A stretch of DNA of 16,283 bases from a virus. Every line of letters starts with the position of its first letter. Positions within the stretch are counted from its first letter, which is position 1. Below the pieces are notes generated by a model. That model did not search any database, was not told the origin of the DNA, and saw only the letters and a program-made list of their open reading frames with translations. Below are positions 8,550 through 15,434 of this stretch, piece after piece. Where the stretch lies: UHGV virus genome UHGV-0153204; one strand, written 5' to 3'. The translations under genes and the position numbers were made by a program.

Positions 8550-8888
8550 CTATTTCCCTGAATTTACGACGAAACTGTTCGAGCGGACTGAAGCATTCAT
8601 GCTCATAACCTTCGCGGAGGTAGATAACCCGTTGTGTTTCCGGCTCCCAACGAATGACTCTGACGGGCACTCCGTAGTGATCTTTGAACCAGCGGTTAAC
8701 TTGTCGCAAAGGACTGTCTCCTTCTGCCGGTTGAAATCACCCACAGCCCACTCTGCAAAGCTGTGGGTTACAATTTCCCTGTCACCTGGTACATTCACTG
8801 CATAGCAATATTCCACCTTCGCTTTTCCACCCGGTACAGGAAGCGCAATCAGTTGCGAGCGACGGTAGTGTGTTGTTAAACTGTTCAT
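8550..8888 (-). CDS. Hypothetical early protein with apparent frame disruption (possible pseudogene or overlapping genes)
   Basis: The N-terminal ~55 codons of the called ORF look protein-like. Downstream the called frame becomes Ser/Thr-rich and atypical, while an alternative minus-strand frame over roughly 8528..8730 encodes ...[62 protein letters not shown] and ends overlapping the O-like start. Confidence 0.35.
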
Positions 8889-9442
8889 GCGTTAGTTTCT
8901 CCACAACCAGAAGCAATCGACGCCACGACGCCCGGAGCTGCACACTCGCGGGCGTCATTACTTTCTGAAATGCAAAAAATTTTGTAGACAAGTGCTGCAT
9001 GCTCCTGCAGCTTCGAAATTGAGAGATACAGCTCGTCGTTAATTGCTGTCTTCTCATGCGGTTCCACCACACCGTCTTCGATTGCCGAACGAATCTGTTT
9101 GGAATAACTGCCAATCTGTTCAATGACTTCCAGCAGGCGCTGGTTAATATCGGCGTTATCCACATCCTCGACGTCAGGAAGAGACACAAAGACGCCATTT
9201 GCAGACTGCGCCACAGCGTCAGCAATGAAGTGAGTGCCACCAGCACGTTGTAAAATCATCGCCCATCCCAGCGGGAAAATTTGATCGCCATCGGCACGAA
9301 GGCGGTTAAATAATGCGTTCTCTGTTACATCCAGCCAGTCAGCTGCTTCAGCGTAACCCCCCGGCAACGCTGCGATAGTTTTTCTGACAGCTTTCACGTA
9401 CCACTTAGGCTGTTTTTCTACTTTCCAGTGATGCTTACCCAC
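8885..9442 (-). CDS. CII-like / YdaT-family regulator
   Basis: Likely GTG start at 9442 preceded by AGGAG (9453..9449); the longer six-frame ORF would overlap cro by 83 bp. Contains an HTH-like [18 protein letters not shown]. Position immediately after cro corresponds to cII/YdaT in lambdoid and Rac-type prophages. Confidence 0.5.
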
Positions 9443-9464
9443 GGCTATCTCCTTAAAACTGTGG

Positions 9465-9713
9465 TTACTTTTCATCTGATGAATCTTTAATCTTTTGAAA
9501 AATATCTGGACGTAATTTTTCTTTTGATATGCCAGTGGTCTTTTCAATGAATATCGAGAGCTTTGCAGGGGGACGCTTTTCTCTGTTCAACCAGTTCCAG
9601 ACATGTTGTTGCTTTACTAAATGACCGCTGCTGGCTGTGAGCTTCCGAGCCAATTCTGATTGACCACCAGCCAGAGCGATTGCCTCCGATAAGGCTAATT
9701 GCTCAGGTGTCAT
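9465..9713 (-). CDS. Cro / YdaS-like HTH transcriptional regulator
   Basis: 82 aa; HTH GGQSELARKLTASSGHLVKQQHVWNWLN. Divergently transcribed from the CI-like repressor across a repeat-rich operator region. Strong SD (AAAGGAGA) upstream. Confidence 0.75.
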   Translation of the reverse strand: MTPEQLALSEAIALAGGQSELARKLTASSGHLVKQQHVWNWLNREKRPPAKLSIFIEKTTGISKEKLRPDIFQKIKDSSDEK

Positions 9714-9848
9714 AGCTTTCTCCTTTTTTGGTAGTTAAGTTGTTACGAGTTGCAAGAATACAACATTAACAACTTTTATCACAACTTTTAGGTGTTGGAA
9801 AGCTAAAACATAAAGTTGTAACCTCATCAAAAAAGAGAGGGATATGTT
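9714..9848. promoter_or_regulatory. Divergent operator/promoter region between cro-like and cI-like genes (OR-like)
   Basis: Repeated inverted motifs: AAGTTGTTAC (9737..9746), TAACAACTT (9768..9776), ACAACTTTTA (9781..9790), TAAAGTTGTAAC (9811..9822). Sits between divergent regulator genes. Confidence 0.6.
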
Positions 9849-10535
9849 GTGAAAACACTGGCAGAACGATTAAAGATAGGTAGAGAGAAAGCTGGCATGA
9901 GCCAAGCTCAACTAGCTGAAAAAATTGGACTTTCACAACAATCTGTAGCCAAAATAGAGAATGGCGAAACTCTACAACCGCGCAAAATTAAAGAAATTGC
10001 AAAAGTTTTAGGTGTATCACAAAAGTGGTTACAACTTGGTATTGAAGACAACGCATCCATACCTGATCTTGTTGTAAAAGAAGCAGAAAGCACCGCATTA
10101 GACCCCGATATTTTCGTAAACATTCCTGTTTTAGATGTCGAGTTATCGGCAGGTAACGGATGTCTGGCTGAAATAGTTGAATCAGCTATTGACTGGTTTC
10201 CGTTAAGAAGAGCAGATTTGAGAAAATCTGGCGTATGTGCATCTAATGCCAAGATCGTAAAAATATGGGGGAACAGTTTATTACCGGTTCTCAATAATGG
10301 AGATCTTGTTGCCGTTGATATTTCTCAAACCGTTCCTATTCGTGATGGCGATCTTTATGCCGTACGAGATGGTGTATTGCTAAGGGTTAAAATACTTATC
10401 AACTTACCTGACGGTGGCTTGATTCTTAGAAGCTTCAACAAAGATGAGTACCCAGATGAAATACTTACCTTTGAAGATAGACGAGCCAGAATTCATGTTA
10501 TAGGTAGGGTATTCTGGTCATCGCGAACTTGGTAA
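9849..10535 (+). CDS. cI: CI-like prophage repressor (N-terminal XRE HTH + C-terminal S24 LexA-like peptidase domain)
   Basis: GTG start at 9849. HTH GMSQAQLAEKIGLSQQSVAKIENGE; C-terminal region with GNSLLP (Ser) and LRVKIL (Lys) typical of S24 autocleaving repressors. Confidence 0.85.
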   Translation: MKTLAERLKIGREKAGMSQAQLAEKIGLSQQSVAKIENGETLQPRKIKEIAKVLGVSQKWLQLGIEDNASIPDLVVKEAESTALDPDIFVNIPVLDVELSAGNGCLAEIVESAIDWFPLRRADLRKSGVCASNAKIVKIWGNSLLPVLNNGDLVAVDISQTVPIRDGDLYAVRDGVLLRVKILINLPDGGLILRSFNKDEYPDEILTFEDRRARIHVIGRVFWSSRTW

Positions 10536-11408
10536 TGCATCGAAAAGCATTTCTTCAGAAATAATTTTAAGTTTTGCACCATTATCATCTCTATAAGATA
10601 TAGCCTTTTCGATCTTCCTTCCGTGACTAGAGAATTTCCAATCACGGGAGGAAAGCGTCCCAATTACTAAAAAATCCAACTGTTGAGTAATTCCACTACT
10701 GATGTTCCCACCAGCATTTTTAATCAAATTTTCAACTACGGCTCTCTTTCCTGCAACAAAAGTGCCTGTAAGACAATAGGTTTTACCCTCTAACTCTATC
10801 GAAGCCTCTACATCAATAGGCAGCCTGGTCGCCAAACCATCCACCACCCCACTTTCCAAGTCACATCCTGTGAAGTCTACTAATGCCTTATGTAGAGTTA
10901 AACTCTCATCTTCAGTAATAACACCATCTTTAAGAATTTCCTTTACAAGTGCATAAAGTTTTTTTCCTGGGTAGTTGTTCTTCAAAGCTCCATTTTGCTC
11001 AAGCCACCAATTAAGATATCTTATTTCTTCTTGAGTTAAGTTCCGATCAGCAATTAATCCTTTACATAGTCCATTAAGTAAATGGACATCTACATCCTTG
11101 GAGTAAAAATCAATTTCAGGGATATCAAGAATTTCCCTCTGTATTTGGAGAAGGCTATTTTTAAGGTCATCACGTTCTTCTGATGTGATTATTCCATCCG
11201 CAAGAATATCCGACACCCGTGCAGATAGACTTTTTATAACTCCATTATTGATAATCTGCTTTGCTTCAAGTAACCATGTATCTAAGTAAAGAACCTCCTC
11301 TTCACGGACAACTCCATCTGCAATGATTCCATCAATGATGCTAATCAAGTTAGCAAATAACTTGTCCCGGTTCTGTGTGTAATTAAAAGCGTAAAGCGCG
11401 TCTTCCAT
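10518..11408 (-). CDS. Hypothetical protein: four tandem ~36-aa repeats plus C-terminal BRCT-like domain (immunity-region accessory gene)
   Basis: Likely start ATG at 11408 with perfect SD (AAAGGAGGttgtATG); the ORF track begins at 11438. Repeats share a hydrophobic-ADG-hydrophobic-(I/V)(T/R)xEE...L core (IIADGVVREEEV, ILADGIITSEER, LIADRNLTQEEI, ILKDGVITEDES). C-terminus GKTYCLTGTF...DFLVIGT...KLKIISEEMLFDAL resembles the LigA-type BRCT domain. AT-rich, convergent with cI. Confidence 0.7.
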   Translation of the reverse strand: MEDALYAFNYTQNRDKLFANLISIIDGIIADGVVREEEVLYLDTWLLEAKQIINNGVIKSLSARVSDILADGIITSEERDDLKNSLLQIQREILDIPEIDFYSKDVDVHLLNGLCKGLIADRNLTQEEIRYLNWWLEQNGALKNNYPGKKLYALVKEILKDGVITEDESLTLHKALVDFTGCDLESGVVDGLATRLPIDVEASIELEGKTYCLTGTFVAGKRAVVENLIKNAGGNISSGITQQLDFLVIGTLSSRDWKFSSHGRKIEKAISYRDDNGAKLKIISEEMLFDALPSSR

Positions 11409-11439
11409 ACAACCTCCTTTTTTTGATAATCCTTGCACT

Positions 11440-11530
11440 CCTTGGCCACTCGTTCAAACCACATAAAGTTGTTGACAACATTCAAAACCACAACTAAATT
11501 ACAACTTAAAGGTGTTAAAACAACGAACAG
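11440..11530. promoter_or_regulatory. Second operator-like region (OL-like) with consensus-like plus-strand promoter
   Basis: Shares ACATAAAGTTGT and ACAACTT(T/A)(T/A)AGGTGTT blocks with the cro/cI intergenic region. TTGACA (11472..11477), 17-bp spacer, TAAATT (11495..11500) on the plus strand. Also upstream of the minus-strand BRCT gene. Confidence 0.45.
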
Positions 11531-11613
11531 GCAGGACGCCCACGAAGTAGCCCGCCTGGTACGTACGAAGACCGGGATGATTCGTTAGCGGATGATTTCA
11601 GTGGAGAGAATAG

Positions 11614-11922
11614 ATGAATGAGCAGAATTTGAAGCATGTGATCGCATTGTTGCTGGAAGACGCTAAACGTTTGCAGCAGATAGAGCCAAATGCAGGCACT
11701 GAGGCCCGTATTTTGTTAGCAAAACAGGCATTAAAGACTTGCGGGGCGCAAGACCCTGATCGAACCAAGTTCATGAATTTCATGGCTAACACGATCACCC
11801 CCCTGCCATGCAATGGAGAGAGGGTGAGCCGTGTTTATCACGACACAATGGTTAAGGCATTAAGAATCGAGCTTGATGGGCTTAGGCGTAAGATCGTGAT
11901 GAACAAAATCGTTGCCAACTAA
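11614..11922 (+). CDS. Hypothetical early-left protein
   Basis: 102 aa ORF with SD GGAGAG 5 nt upstream; helical-looking composition. First gene downstream of the OL-like promoter. No recognisable family; not similar to lambda N by eye. Confidence 0.45.
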   Translation: MNEQNLKHVIALLLEDAKRLQQIEPNAGTEARILLAKQALKTCGAQDPDRTKFMNFMANTITPLPCNGERVSRVYHDTMVKALRIELDGLRRKIVMNKIVAN

Positions 11923-12203
11923 GGAAGCAGACGGAAGTAAGCATGCGCTTTGTTCAAATTTGCAGACAAATATATTTGCGTCAACACCAGCACTGTTAGC
12001 AATGGAAAAAGTTTGATCAAGGATTTGTTGGCAGTTCATTGTGCTTTTGAGGATATATCCCTCTGGAATCAGTCTGCAGCAGCTATCGTCAGACTCTTTG
12101 ATTGTTTTCTGGTACAGAAAGTTAAGCATTAATTCTTCAAATTTTTTGGTCTGTTCGGCTGTTGCTTCAAACAGACGAACGTGAACATAAAACTGGTTCA
12201 TTA
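11860..12203 (-). CDS. Hypothetical protein (minus strand, overlaps 3' end of preceding plus-strand ORF)
   Basis: Best start ATG at 12203 with SD AAGGAAACC. N-terminal MNQFYVHVRLFEATAEQTKKFEELMLNFLYQK looks protein-like. 63-bp convergent overlap with 11614..11922 means at least one of the two may be mis-called. Confidence 0.4.
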
Positions 12204-12299
12204 GGTTTCCTTGCTGGCTGTGTGAGAACTCCAGCATACCACCGAGCCTGAAGTGGTGAAAAGACAGGCAATAGTTTCATTGCTGTGTGTAGTCTTGGA

Positions 12300-14843: not shown

Positions 14844-15434
14844 TTACTCACCATCATCTAATTCGTTTAAAAATCTGGCAAGAACATCTCCGTGGCACGG
14901 ATAGGGTTTGCAATGGCAACCAAGGATTTTTCCTTTATGTGCTTTCAGCTTTTCTTTGAAATCCTCTCCCCCTTTTAAAAAATTTCTATCAAAGTCATAC
15001 TTAAACTTTCTTATAACTTCATCACGATCACCATCTGCTCCAATCGCATAAGGATTACCCCATAAAGTACCGCGACCGCAATATACATCGAAGTGTTCCC
15101 CCCTGTCTTTATTGGATACAAAAGTAATTTTGTCTTTTATATACCTTACGGGAATTTGTGATGCTAACGTTTCATAAATTGTTGTGAACTCAGGTTTCAA
15201 AGCTGAATCAAAAACAACGGCATGCGTTAAACCAAGATTATAAGGATCTGTAAGAAGGTCAGGATCAAGTTTAAAAATCAAATCAGAAGAAAAATAGTCA
15301 TGTATCAAGTTCTGGTTATCTTCAAAATAAAATACTTTGTATTCACTCGATTCGGAGAAGATACGGGTAAGCTTTCGCTCAAACTTACCCTTTGAAGCAA
15401 AATCAGGATGATACATAACTAGTACTTTCATCAT
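14844..15434 (-). CDS. DUF4326-like domain protein with N-terminal extension
   Basis: C-terminal FDVYCGRGTLWGNPYAIG...GKILGCHCKPYPCHGDVLARFL matches the DUF4326 signature as I recall it (..CGRP..WGNPF...L.C.C.P.pCHGDVL). AT-rich. ATGA-type overlap with the upstream DUF488-like gene. Confidence 0.55.
   Translation of the reverse strand: MMKVLVMYHPDFASKGKFERKLTRIFSESSEYKVFYFEDNQNLIHDYFSSDLIFKLDPDLLTDPYNLGLTHAVVFDSALKPEFTTIYETLASQIPVRYIKDKITFVSNKDRGEHFDVYCGRGTLWGNPYAIGADGDRDEVIRKFKYDFDRNFLKGGEDFKEKLKAHKGKILGCHCKPYPCHGDVLARFLNELDDGE

Follow-up and report, generated by a model that had tools for sequence, protein, structure and literature searches.

Does one repressor act on both of the intergenic regions that flank the cI gene and its convergent neighbor in this prophage? 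The question is raised by a stretch of 16,283 nucleotides (nt) from the virus genome UHGV-0153204 (this whole stretch is "the window" below), which carries the early genes of a lambdoid prophage of the e14 type. In it the gap between a cro-like gene and the cI repressor gene, and a second gap upstream of a BRCT-domain gene that is convergent with cI, carry the same short sequence blocks. A previous sequence-only reading of this DNA had taken the two regions to be OR-like and OL-like operator clusters through which one repressor controls both switch promoters and possibly the BRCT gene as well. We find it very probable, judging from the sequences and their conservation, that the two clusters are the OR and OL of an SOS-cleavable, 434-like CI in an e14-type lambdoid prophage, with a 15-base-pair (15-bp) dyad as the binding unit; the role of the dyads at the BRCT gene is much less secure.

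A 15-bp dyad in two intergenic clusters

Two kinds of block had been described as common to the two gaps, and each does occur exactly twice and nowhere else in the window: ACATAAAGTTGT at 9808-9819 and 11461-11472 (one mismatch allowed; 0.10 expected) and ACAACTTWWAGGTGTT at 9781-9796 and 11501-11516 (two mismatches allowed; 0.04 expected). The clustering of inverted ACAAC/GTTGT half-sites in both regions holds as well, since these pentamers are found 5 times in 9714-9848 (0.35 expected; Poisson P = 3e-5) and 6 times in 11409-11530 (0.31 expected; Poisson P = 1e-6), an enrichment of 15-20 fold in both gaps when the expectations are derived from the remainder of the window. The idea that the blocks are two separate motifs, on the other hand, had to be abandoned: an inverted-repeat search (repeat I4) identifies ACATAAAGTTGT and ACAACTT..AGGTGTT as reverse complements, so there is only a single motif, the 15-bp imperfect dyad ACAACTT-n-AAGTTGT, with four strong copies that we call A, D, C and B. 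These and the half-sites that accompany them are as follows, where PR, PRM and PL are the promoters predicted below.

Gap between cro and cI, 135 bp: OR-like cluster
9737-9743, minus strand: orphan half-site AAGTTGT (ACAACTT on the minus strand) in the cro leader, at about +5 to +11 of PR; score 10.5
9760-9766, plus strand: orphan half-site ACAACAT in the -10/spacer region of PR; score 9.0, conservation 0.86
9769-9775, plus strand: orphan half-site ACAACTT in the -10/spacer region of PR; score 10.5, conservation 0.93
9781-9795, plus strand: predicted operator A, ACAACTTTTAGGTGT, a 15-bp dyad with 5/7 symmetric pairs; score 17.4, conservation 0.97
9805-9819, minus strand: predicted operator D, AAAACATAAAGTTGT (ACAACTTTATGTTTT on the minus strand); dyad score 16.9, conservation 0.97
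Gap between the BRCT gene and a 102-amino-acid open reading frame (ORF), 205 bp: OL-like cluster
11458-11472, minus strand: predicted operator C, ACCACATAAAGTTGT (ACAACTTTATGTGGT on the minus strand); dyad score 17.4, conservation 0.98
11490-11496, plus strand: orphan half-site ACAACTA at the upstream edge of the PL -10; score 8.1, conservation 0.95
11501-11515, plus strand: predicted operator B, ACAACTTAAAGGTGT, with 6/7 symmetric pairs; top dyad score, 19.8

When the whole 16.3 kb is scanned with a symmetric half-site matrix, the four dyads score 16.9-19.8 and the next-best site in the window 10.9, and shuffled sequence yields 0.03 sites per shuffle at the level of the four dyads. Total lengths of 13-17 bp were tried: strong dyads appear at 15 bp only and none was found at 13, 14, 16 or 17 bp, the 14-bp dyads scoring no better than background. 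Eleven of the 28 strong half-sites fall inside 282 nt, or 1.7% of the window. Each cluster thus contains two full dyads above background plus orphan half-sites, and it is here that the likeness to OR and OL is partial: the presence of two clusters stood up, but the lambda-style triplet of full sites is not present in either. Three other candidates were discarded. Neither the site inside cI at 10001-10015 (score 10.9) nor an 11-nt match at 10027-10037 is conserved in relatives, so both are put down to chance. GTTGTTGACAAC (11468-11479) does overlap the -35 hexamer of PL as had been claimed, but it is not an element in its own right; only its GTTGTTGAC part is conserved in relatives and, as its right arm is not, it was rejected as a palindromic operator.

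Related loci were collected by two protein searches. That with cI found four genomes (labelled Pseudomonas lundensis, Proteus terrae, Providencia rustigianii and Serratia microhaemolytica) and 80 viral contigs, with cI identities of 57-100%, and that with the BRCT protein found a further 84 loci, for about 170 related loci overall (85 counted through cI and 84 through BRCT) from E. coli, Serratia, Proteus, Providencia, Plesiomonas, Salmonella and others. The module cro-OR-cI-BRCT-OL is present in every related locus except in a single lineage, where a 34-codon remnant is all that is left of the BRCT gene. All four dyads are found in 15/15 of the cI-derived representatives scanned and in 85/85 of the BRCT-derived set (the 84 loci plus one E. 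coli relative). In the 15 representatives they lie at the same positions, with A-D spacings of 24-25 bp (24 bp in the window, where D begins 24 bp past A) and a C-B spacing of 43 bp; operator A is at -65 to -69 from the cI start in 15/15, and the position of D is likewise constant. Among 16 diverged representatives the column identity of the dyads and most predicted promoter hexamers is 0.90-0.99 and that of spacers and leaders 0.45-0.60. Neither the sequence nor the placement of the operators shifts among relatives with cI proteins of only 57-85% identity, while the flanks diverge.

The orphan half-sites at 9737-9743, 9760-9766, 9769-9775 and 11490-11496 are as conserved as the dyads. The first has a mean column identity of 0.99 against 0.45 for its flank (16 diverged relatives) and no dyad partner, and those at 9760-9766 and 9769-9775 have no partner at total lengths of 13-17 bp. 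The spacing GTTGT(9739)-N16-ACAAC(9760) is invariant in the main group, though the 16 nt themselves vary. One more half-site, at 9845-9849, overlaps the GTG start of cI; it is conserved as strongly as the full operators and also lacks a dyad partner.

Might the shared blocks simply be remnants of a duplication between the two intergenic regions, with no protein binding to them? The two regions do have in common a similar stretch of about 27 nt that runs the same way in each (ACAACTTTTATCACAACTTTTAGGTGTT versus ACAACTAAATTACAACTTAAAGGTGTT), but their blocks are arranged in a different order and orientation (D is to the right of A, and C to the left of B) and their flanks are unrelated. The blocks are moreover dyad-symmetric, every one of them coincides with the edge of a promoter hexamer, and they are fixed across genera where the neighboring bases fall to 45-60% identity. 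The imperfect half also changes side: operator B is ACACCTTAAAGTTGT in many relatives, with the imperfect half on the opposite side, and operator C is the near-perfect ACAACATAAAGTTGT (6/7 symmetric pairs) in the Proteus/Providencia subgroup, changes which argue for a dyadic protein site and not for sequence that has merely been inherited. We therefore regard simple duplication, which the sequence-only reading had named as one result that would overturn it, as highly improbable.

The repressor and the predicted switch promoters

If the dyads are operators, which protein reads them? The two regulators encoded on either side of the OR cluster are these.

9465-9713, minus strand: cro-like gene, 82 amino acids, YdaS-type helix-turn-helix (HTH), opening the PR operon
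9849-10535, plus strand: cI repressor gene, 228 amino acids, GTG start, HTH_3 plus Peptidase_S24

CI matches the Pfam families HTH_3 (E = 1e-15) and Peptidase_S24 (E = 6e-15), and the Ala101-Gly102 site, Ser143 and Lys181 of self-cleaving repressors are present; with this Ala-Gly site and Ser/Lys dyad, the protein is expected from its sequence to be open to SOS induction. The top solved match to its N-terminal domain is the DNA-binding domain of the 434 repressor (1per/2or1, E = 4e-13, phmmer against PDB sequences), in which the recognition helix TQQSIEQLENG of 434 aligns with SQQSVAKIENG of this CI, and the QQS helix is essentially invariant in relatives that have diverged by 40% elsewhere in the protein. 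The operators of 434 are 14-bp dyads whose conserved outer ACAA bases are contacted by the protein (PMC1636474). The ACAAC half-sites of the window fit reading by a 434-like QQS helix, and each half of the dyad is probably read by that helix of CI.

The likeness to 434 takes in the CI N-terminal domain, the (T/S)QQS...ENG helix, the outer ACA(A)...(T)TGT dyads, the divergent cI and cro genes, a second cluster at PL and the self-cleaving S24 C-terminal domain. The two differ in that the dyad here is 15 bp (ACA-N9-TGT) and that of 434 is 14 bp (PMC1636474), the 434-type ACAA-N6-TTGT form not being encountered; the fifth base here is an invariant C, and the position of Gln33 in 434 is occupied by Lys. 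Each cluster here has two full dyads plus orphan half-sites as opposed to three full sites in 434, and the Cro protein is of the YdaS type and not 434-Cro-like.

This Cro matches Pfam YdaS_toxin (E = 8e-15) and phrog_35 (transcriptional repressor), its RefSeq relatives are annotated as transcriptional regulators, and its helix VKQQ(H/Q)(V/I)WNWL is invariant in relatives. Could the ACAAC repeats, and especially the orphan half-sites, then be bound mainly by Cro, or by the YmfL/CII-like protein or the BRCT protein, and not by CI? Cro's invariant KQQ helix may read ACAA-type half-sites, and half-sites that are conserved like the dyads and yet lack partners are not what a simple CI dimer would lead one to expect. 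In lambdoid switches, however, the operators are shared by CI and Cro, so binding by Cro would add to the assignment of the dyads to CI rather than replace it, and this Cro resembles solved Cro proteins only marginally (E = 0.08). CII-type activators work at promoters downstream of cro and not in OR or OL, and the BRCT protein is dispensable, the lineage that lost its gene having kept the four dyads. A main binder other than CI is accordingly rather improbable.

The operators must also be placed sensibly relative to promoters. The following map was drawn from sequence and conservation, and its transcription starts are predictions.

9755-9784, minus strand: PR, -35 TTGTGA (reverse complement of 9779-9784), 18-nt spacer, -10 TATTCT (reverse complement of 9755-9760), start near 9748
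9795-9824, plus strand: PRM, -35 TTGGAA (9795-9800), 18-nt spacer, -10 TAACCT (9819-9824), start near 9831
11429-11457, minus strand: BRCT promoter, -35 TTGAAC (reverse complement of 11452-11457), 17-nt spacer, extended -10 TGcAAGGAT (reverse complement of 11429-11437), start near 11422
11472-11500, plus strand: PL, -35 TTGACA (11472-11477), 17-nt spacer, -10 TAAATT (11495-11500), start near 11507

The consensus-like TTGACA-17-TAAATT plus-strand promoter that had been pointed out upstream of the BRCT gene is PL, and it is confirmed as the sole 10/12 match in a consensus scan of 9400-11950; its hexamers have conservation values of 0.98 and 0.95, versus 0.45 for its spacer. The PR hexamers are conserved at 0.94 (-35) and 0.82 (-10), the latter being TATAAT in most relatives. 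For PRM the values are 0.99 (-35) and 0.85 (-10), the pattern T-A-n-n-n-T being retained (TAATCT, TAGTCT or TAAAAT in relatives), and its leader contains the Shine-Dalgarno sequence GAGAGGG followed by the GTG at 9849.

Operator A overlaps the -35 of PR and abuts that of PRM, from whose start its center is at about -43, and it is therefore OR2-like. Operator D occupies the PRM spacer and the edge of its -10, which makes it OR3-like. Operator B spans -6 to +9 of PL, and operator C is wedged between two -35 hexamers that stand back to back, that of PL and that of the BRCT promoter, and is centered at about -43 to each. With these positions CI bound at A would turn PR off and could at the same time stimulate PRM. 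Binding of CI or Cro to D would turn off PRM in an OR3-like negative autoregulation, D being a likely target of Cro; CI dimers at A and B, together with those at D and C, would silence PR and PL through one specificity. In lambda, CI at OR2 stimulates PRM, OR2 is near -42/-43 of PRM, and the OR1-OR2 spacing is 24 bp, equal to that between A and D here. Like lambda, the window has one specificity at two clusters that govern the divergent PR/PRM and PL, and an operator near -42/-43 that abuts a weak -35; unlike lambda, it has operators of another sequence and length and no OR1-like dyad over the PR -10. The features of a lambdoid switch are found here: cI and cro are divergent across a short gap, the repressor has HTH and S24 domains, and the distal cluster overlaps an outward early promoter. 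The OR/OL assignment is well borne out in that the clusters lie only at the expected places, are dyad-symmetric and conserved, overlap the -35, -10 or start of PR, PRM and PL, and are adjacent to a gene for a 434-like HTH plus S24 repressor.

Several points weigh against this assignment. A search at lengths of 13-17 bp found no further full dyad that would cover the PR -10, so the PR -10 and start are covered by orphan half-sites only, unlike OR1 of lambda and 434, an arrangement that does not readily account for full repression of PR. At the other cluster, operator C meets the PL -35 by 1 bp only, which leaves repression of PL from this site uncertain. The half-site matrix was derived from the same four sites and is to that extent circular, so its scores gauge specificity and not discovery; and, because the relatives share a phylogeny, part of their conservation is inheritance. 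The generic consensus scan of 9400-11950 missed PR, PRM and the BRCT promoter, and the number of promoter-like matches in that interval is not above the shuffle expectation, so a consensus match alone proves little. Finally, literature on this immunity type yielded no binding, footprint or transcript-start evidence, and nothing relevant turned up in publications for the operator strings, for BRCT genes beside cI or for e14 repressor operators. We infer binding, the starts, the order of occupancy, the role of the orphan half-sites and activation of PRM and the BRCT promoter from sequence.

The BRCT gene and the proposed operator C

The remaining claim of the sequence-only reading was that the BRCT gene may answer to the same repressor.

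10518-11408, minus strand: BRCT-domain gene, 296 amino acids, convergent with cI

The protein has a C-terminal BRCT domain (Pfam BRCT, E = 1e-6) that is of the RFC1/LigA type by sequence and fold, and an N-terminus of helical repeats in which no Pfam family is found at E < 0.05. Its AlphaFold model is of moderate quality (predicted local distance difference test 72, predicted template modeling score 0.38), and a fold search with it retrieved the BRCT domain alone. It belongs to phrog_3989 (function unknown) and has 344 homologs in Enterobacterales, all of them unnamed, plus a weak partial match to the PADLOC candidate PDC-S48 (E = 2e-7, residues 119-251).

The gene reads in the direction of cro, toward OR, and its end overlaps the 3' end of cI by 18 bp (10518-10535; 9-18 bp in relatives). 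As the two ends converge and overlap and no terminator was detected between the genes, the cI and BRCT transcripts must overlap in antisense, and antisense or interference effects are possible. The gene is tied to this cI type in all 84 BRCT-derived loci (by the protein or an exact homolog) and in one E. coli relative. It is nevertheless dispensable, having collapsed in one lineage to the 34-codon remnant, and its linkage to cI may reflect regulatory coupling or may equally reflect hitch-hiking within the immunity region. Its position between cI and OL is that of a rex-like gene, rexAB being the accessory genes of lambda there, but it is not co-transcribed with cI from PRM; it lies on the opposite strand, convergent with cI, and its own promoter shares operator C with PL, which is a further difference from lambda.

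That promoter, whose leader AAAAAGGAGGTTGT precedes the ATG, is conserved (0.97 for the -10 and 0.90 for the -35, versus 0.57 for the spacer). Both hexamers and the 17-nt distance between them are kept in 60/60 unique OL sequences, with the bases inside the spacer varying freely, and the hexamers have decayed in the lineage without the gene. The center of operator C (11465) is 43 bp from the predicted start at 11422, and the gap between C and the -35 is zero in 60/60. The claim is amended here to a conserved predicted promoter of the gene's own that abuts C, with a geometry that points to activation by CI, or to no effect, more than to simple repression. C is centered about 43 bp upstream of the BRCT start, just as A is at PRM, so CI bound there would be in a position to stimulate this promoter or at least to leave it unblocked, and could plausibly keep the BRCT gene on in lysogens; this is the least secure step of the proposed mechanism.

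Could the dyads be operators and the BRCT promoter nonetheless be constitutive (a moron-type gene beside OL), or be repressed by CI at C as an early lytic gene would be? The -35 is fairly good already (TTGAAC/TTGATT) and the extended -10 TGn could permit initiation without an activator; any gene trapped between cI and OL would hitch-hike, which could explain the strict linkage, and an overlap with cI tail to tail without a terminator is awkward for a gene strongly transcribed in lysogens. Set against these points are the zero gap between C and the -35 in 60/60, at about -43 as for A at PRM and OR2 at PRM in lambda, the poor -10 AAGGAT, which is typical of activator-dependent promoters, and the position of C outside the core BRCT promoter, which makes simple occlusion unlikely. 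We give this alternative a chance only a little short of even. A more elaborate proposal, in which OL acts as a second bidirectional switch where one CI dimer at C helps to repress PL while activating the BRCT promoter, the BRCT protein is a CI-dependent lysogen function and the RNA element that follows PL belongs to an undescribed family, is tentative and on balance doubtful; within it, the BRCT protein would serve in defense or as a DNA-damage-linked modulator of the switch.

The PL transcription unit and the surroundings of the module

Three further features bear on where the immunity region begins and ends.

8885-9448, minus strand: YmfL/CII-like gene, next to cro
11523-11585, plus strand: structured leader element with a closing stem, the invariant 5' arm AGGCAGGACGCCCACGAAGTAGCCGCC and a covarying 5-bp hairpin
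11614-11922, plus strand: ORF of 102 amino acids that leads the PL operon; phrog_12693, function unknown

The leader element begins about 17 nt past the predicted PL start, and is part of the PL transcription unit and not of the operator. In a consensus fold of 68 distinct sequences 9 of 17 pairs show compensatory changes, and 97% of cells are paired versus 20-44% in slid controls, the alignment having been fitted to the model. It has no Rfam match. It is single-copy in each locus, with none downstream of PR, and is present also at L086 3771-3841, L087 3496-3566 and L088 3501-3571 and in many other loci; its exact core occurs in at least 120 IMG/VR viral contigs, and the heteroimmune phages SfII, ST64B, phiNP, YeP1 and mEp460 have it in common after their differing OL/PL regions. 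It resembles HK022 putL in lying about 17 nt after the PL start (PMC9378689). It differs from lambda nutL/nutR and HK022 putL/putR in being single, with no copy after PR, its covariance model has no match in the HK022 regions, and neither boxA nor boxB was found in the window, and a nut/put antitermination RNA was rejected on these grounds. At L010 4769-4780 and in 24 other related loci, but not in the window, the leader element is followed after about 35 nt by an rrn-type boxA, GCTCTTTAACAA, with a small hairpin ahead of it; the presence of this boxA in the PL operon of relatives hints at Nus-dependent antitermination in this phage group.

The 102-amino-acid ORF varies among relatives and is present in few loci of the same immunity type, and a YmfI-like ORF (11860-12237, minus strand) is convergent with it and overlaps its 3' end by about 60 bp. 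To the right of OL, gene content differs widely among loci that share the immunity region, and thus there is a mosaic junction immediately past the PL leader element. The G+C content is 0.42 for cro, 0.40 for cI and 0.38 for the BRCT gene, against a window mean of 0.45 and 0.50 for the CII-like neighbor; the higher AT content of the immunity module (9465-11408) would fit a mosaic segment with an origin of its own. A SAM-III match at 15086-15166 (E = 0.93, well under the gathering score) is attributed to chance.

No known phage carrying this immunity region was found among 50,697 phage records, in which matches were limited to the flanks and the leader. The immunity modules of e14, SfII, SfIV, ST64B and phiNP share with the window the order YmfL-like cII, cro, cI and OL/PL and the conserved PL leader element, and a close relative of the window (99% identical) is integrated at icd with intE/xisE. 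Those modules differ from it in their operators (TTGCA-N5-CGCAA-like in ST64B), in a terminator after cI, and in having no BRCT gene between cI and OL.

The immunity switch is thus otherwise an ordinary one of the lambdoid/434 class, and it is a variant in its 15-bp dyad, its two full sites plus half-sites per cluster and an accessory promoter that shares OL. What the analysis contributes is an operator code (ACAACTT-n-AAGTTGT, 15 bp) and a promoter map for an immunity type that about 1% of the complete genomes of E. coli carry and that also occurs in several further Enterobacterales. As a natural variant of 434 recognition with one extra bp between the half-sites, it is useful for studying the evolution of repressor specificity and dimer geometry. 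General concepts of such switches are unchanged by it, and it supplies a specific example, open to experiment, in which an accessory gene is tied into OL.

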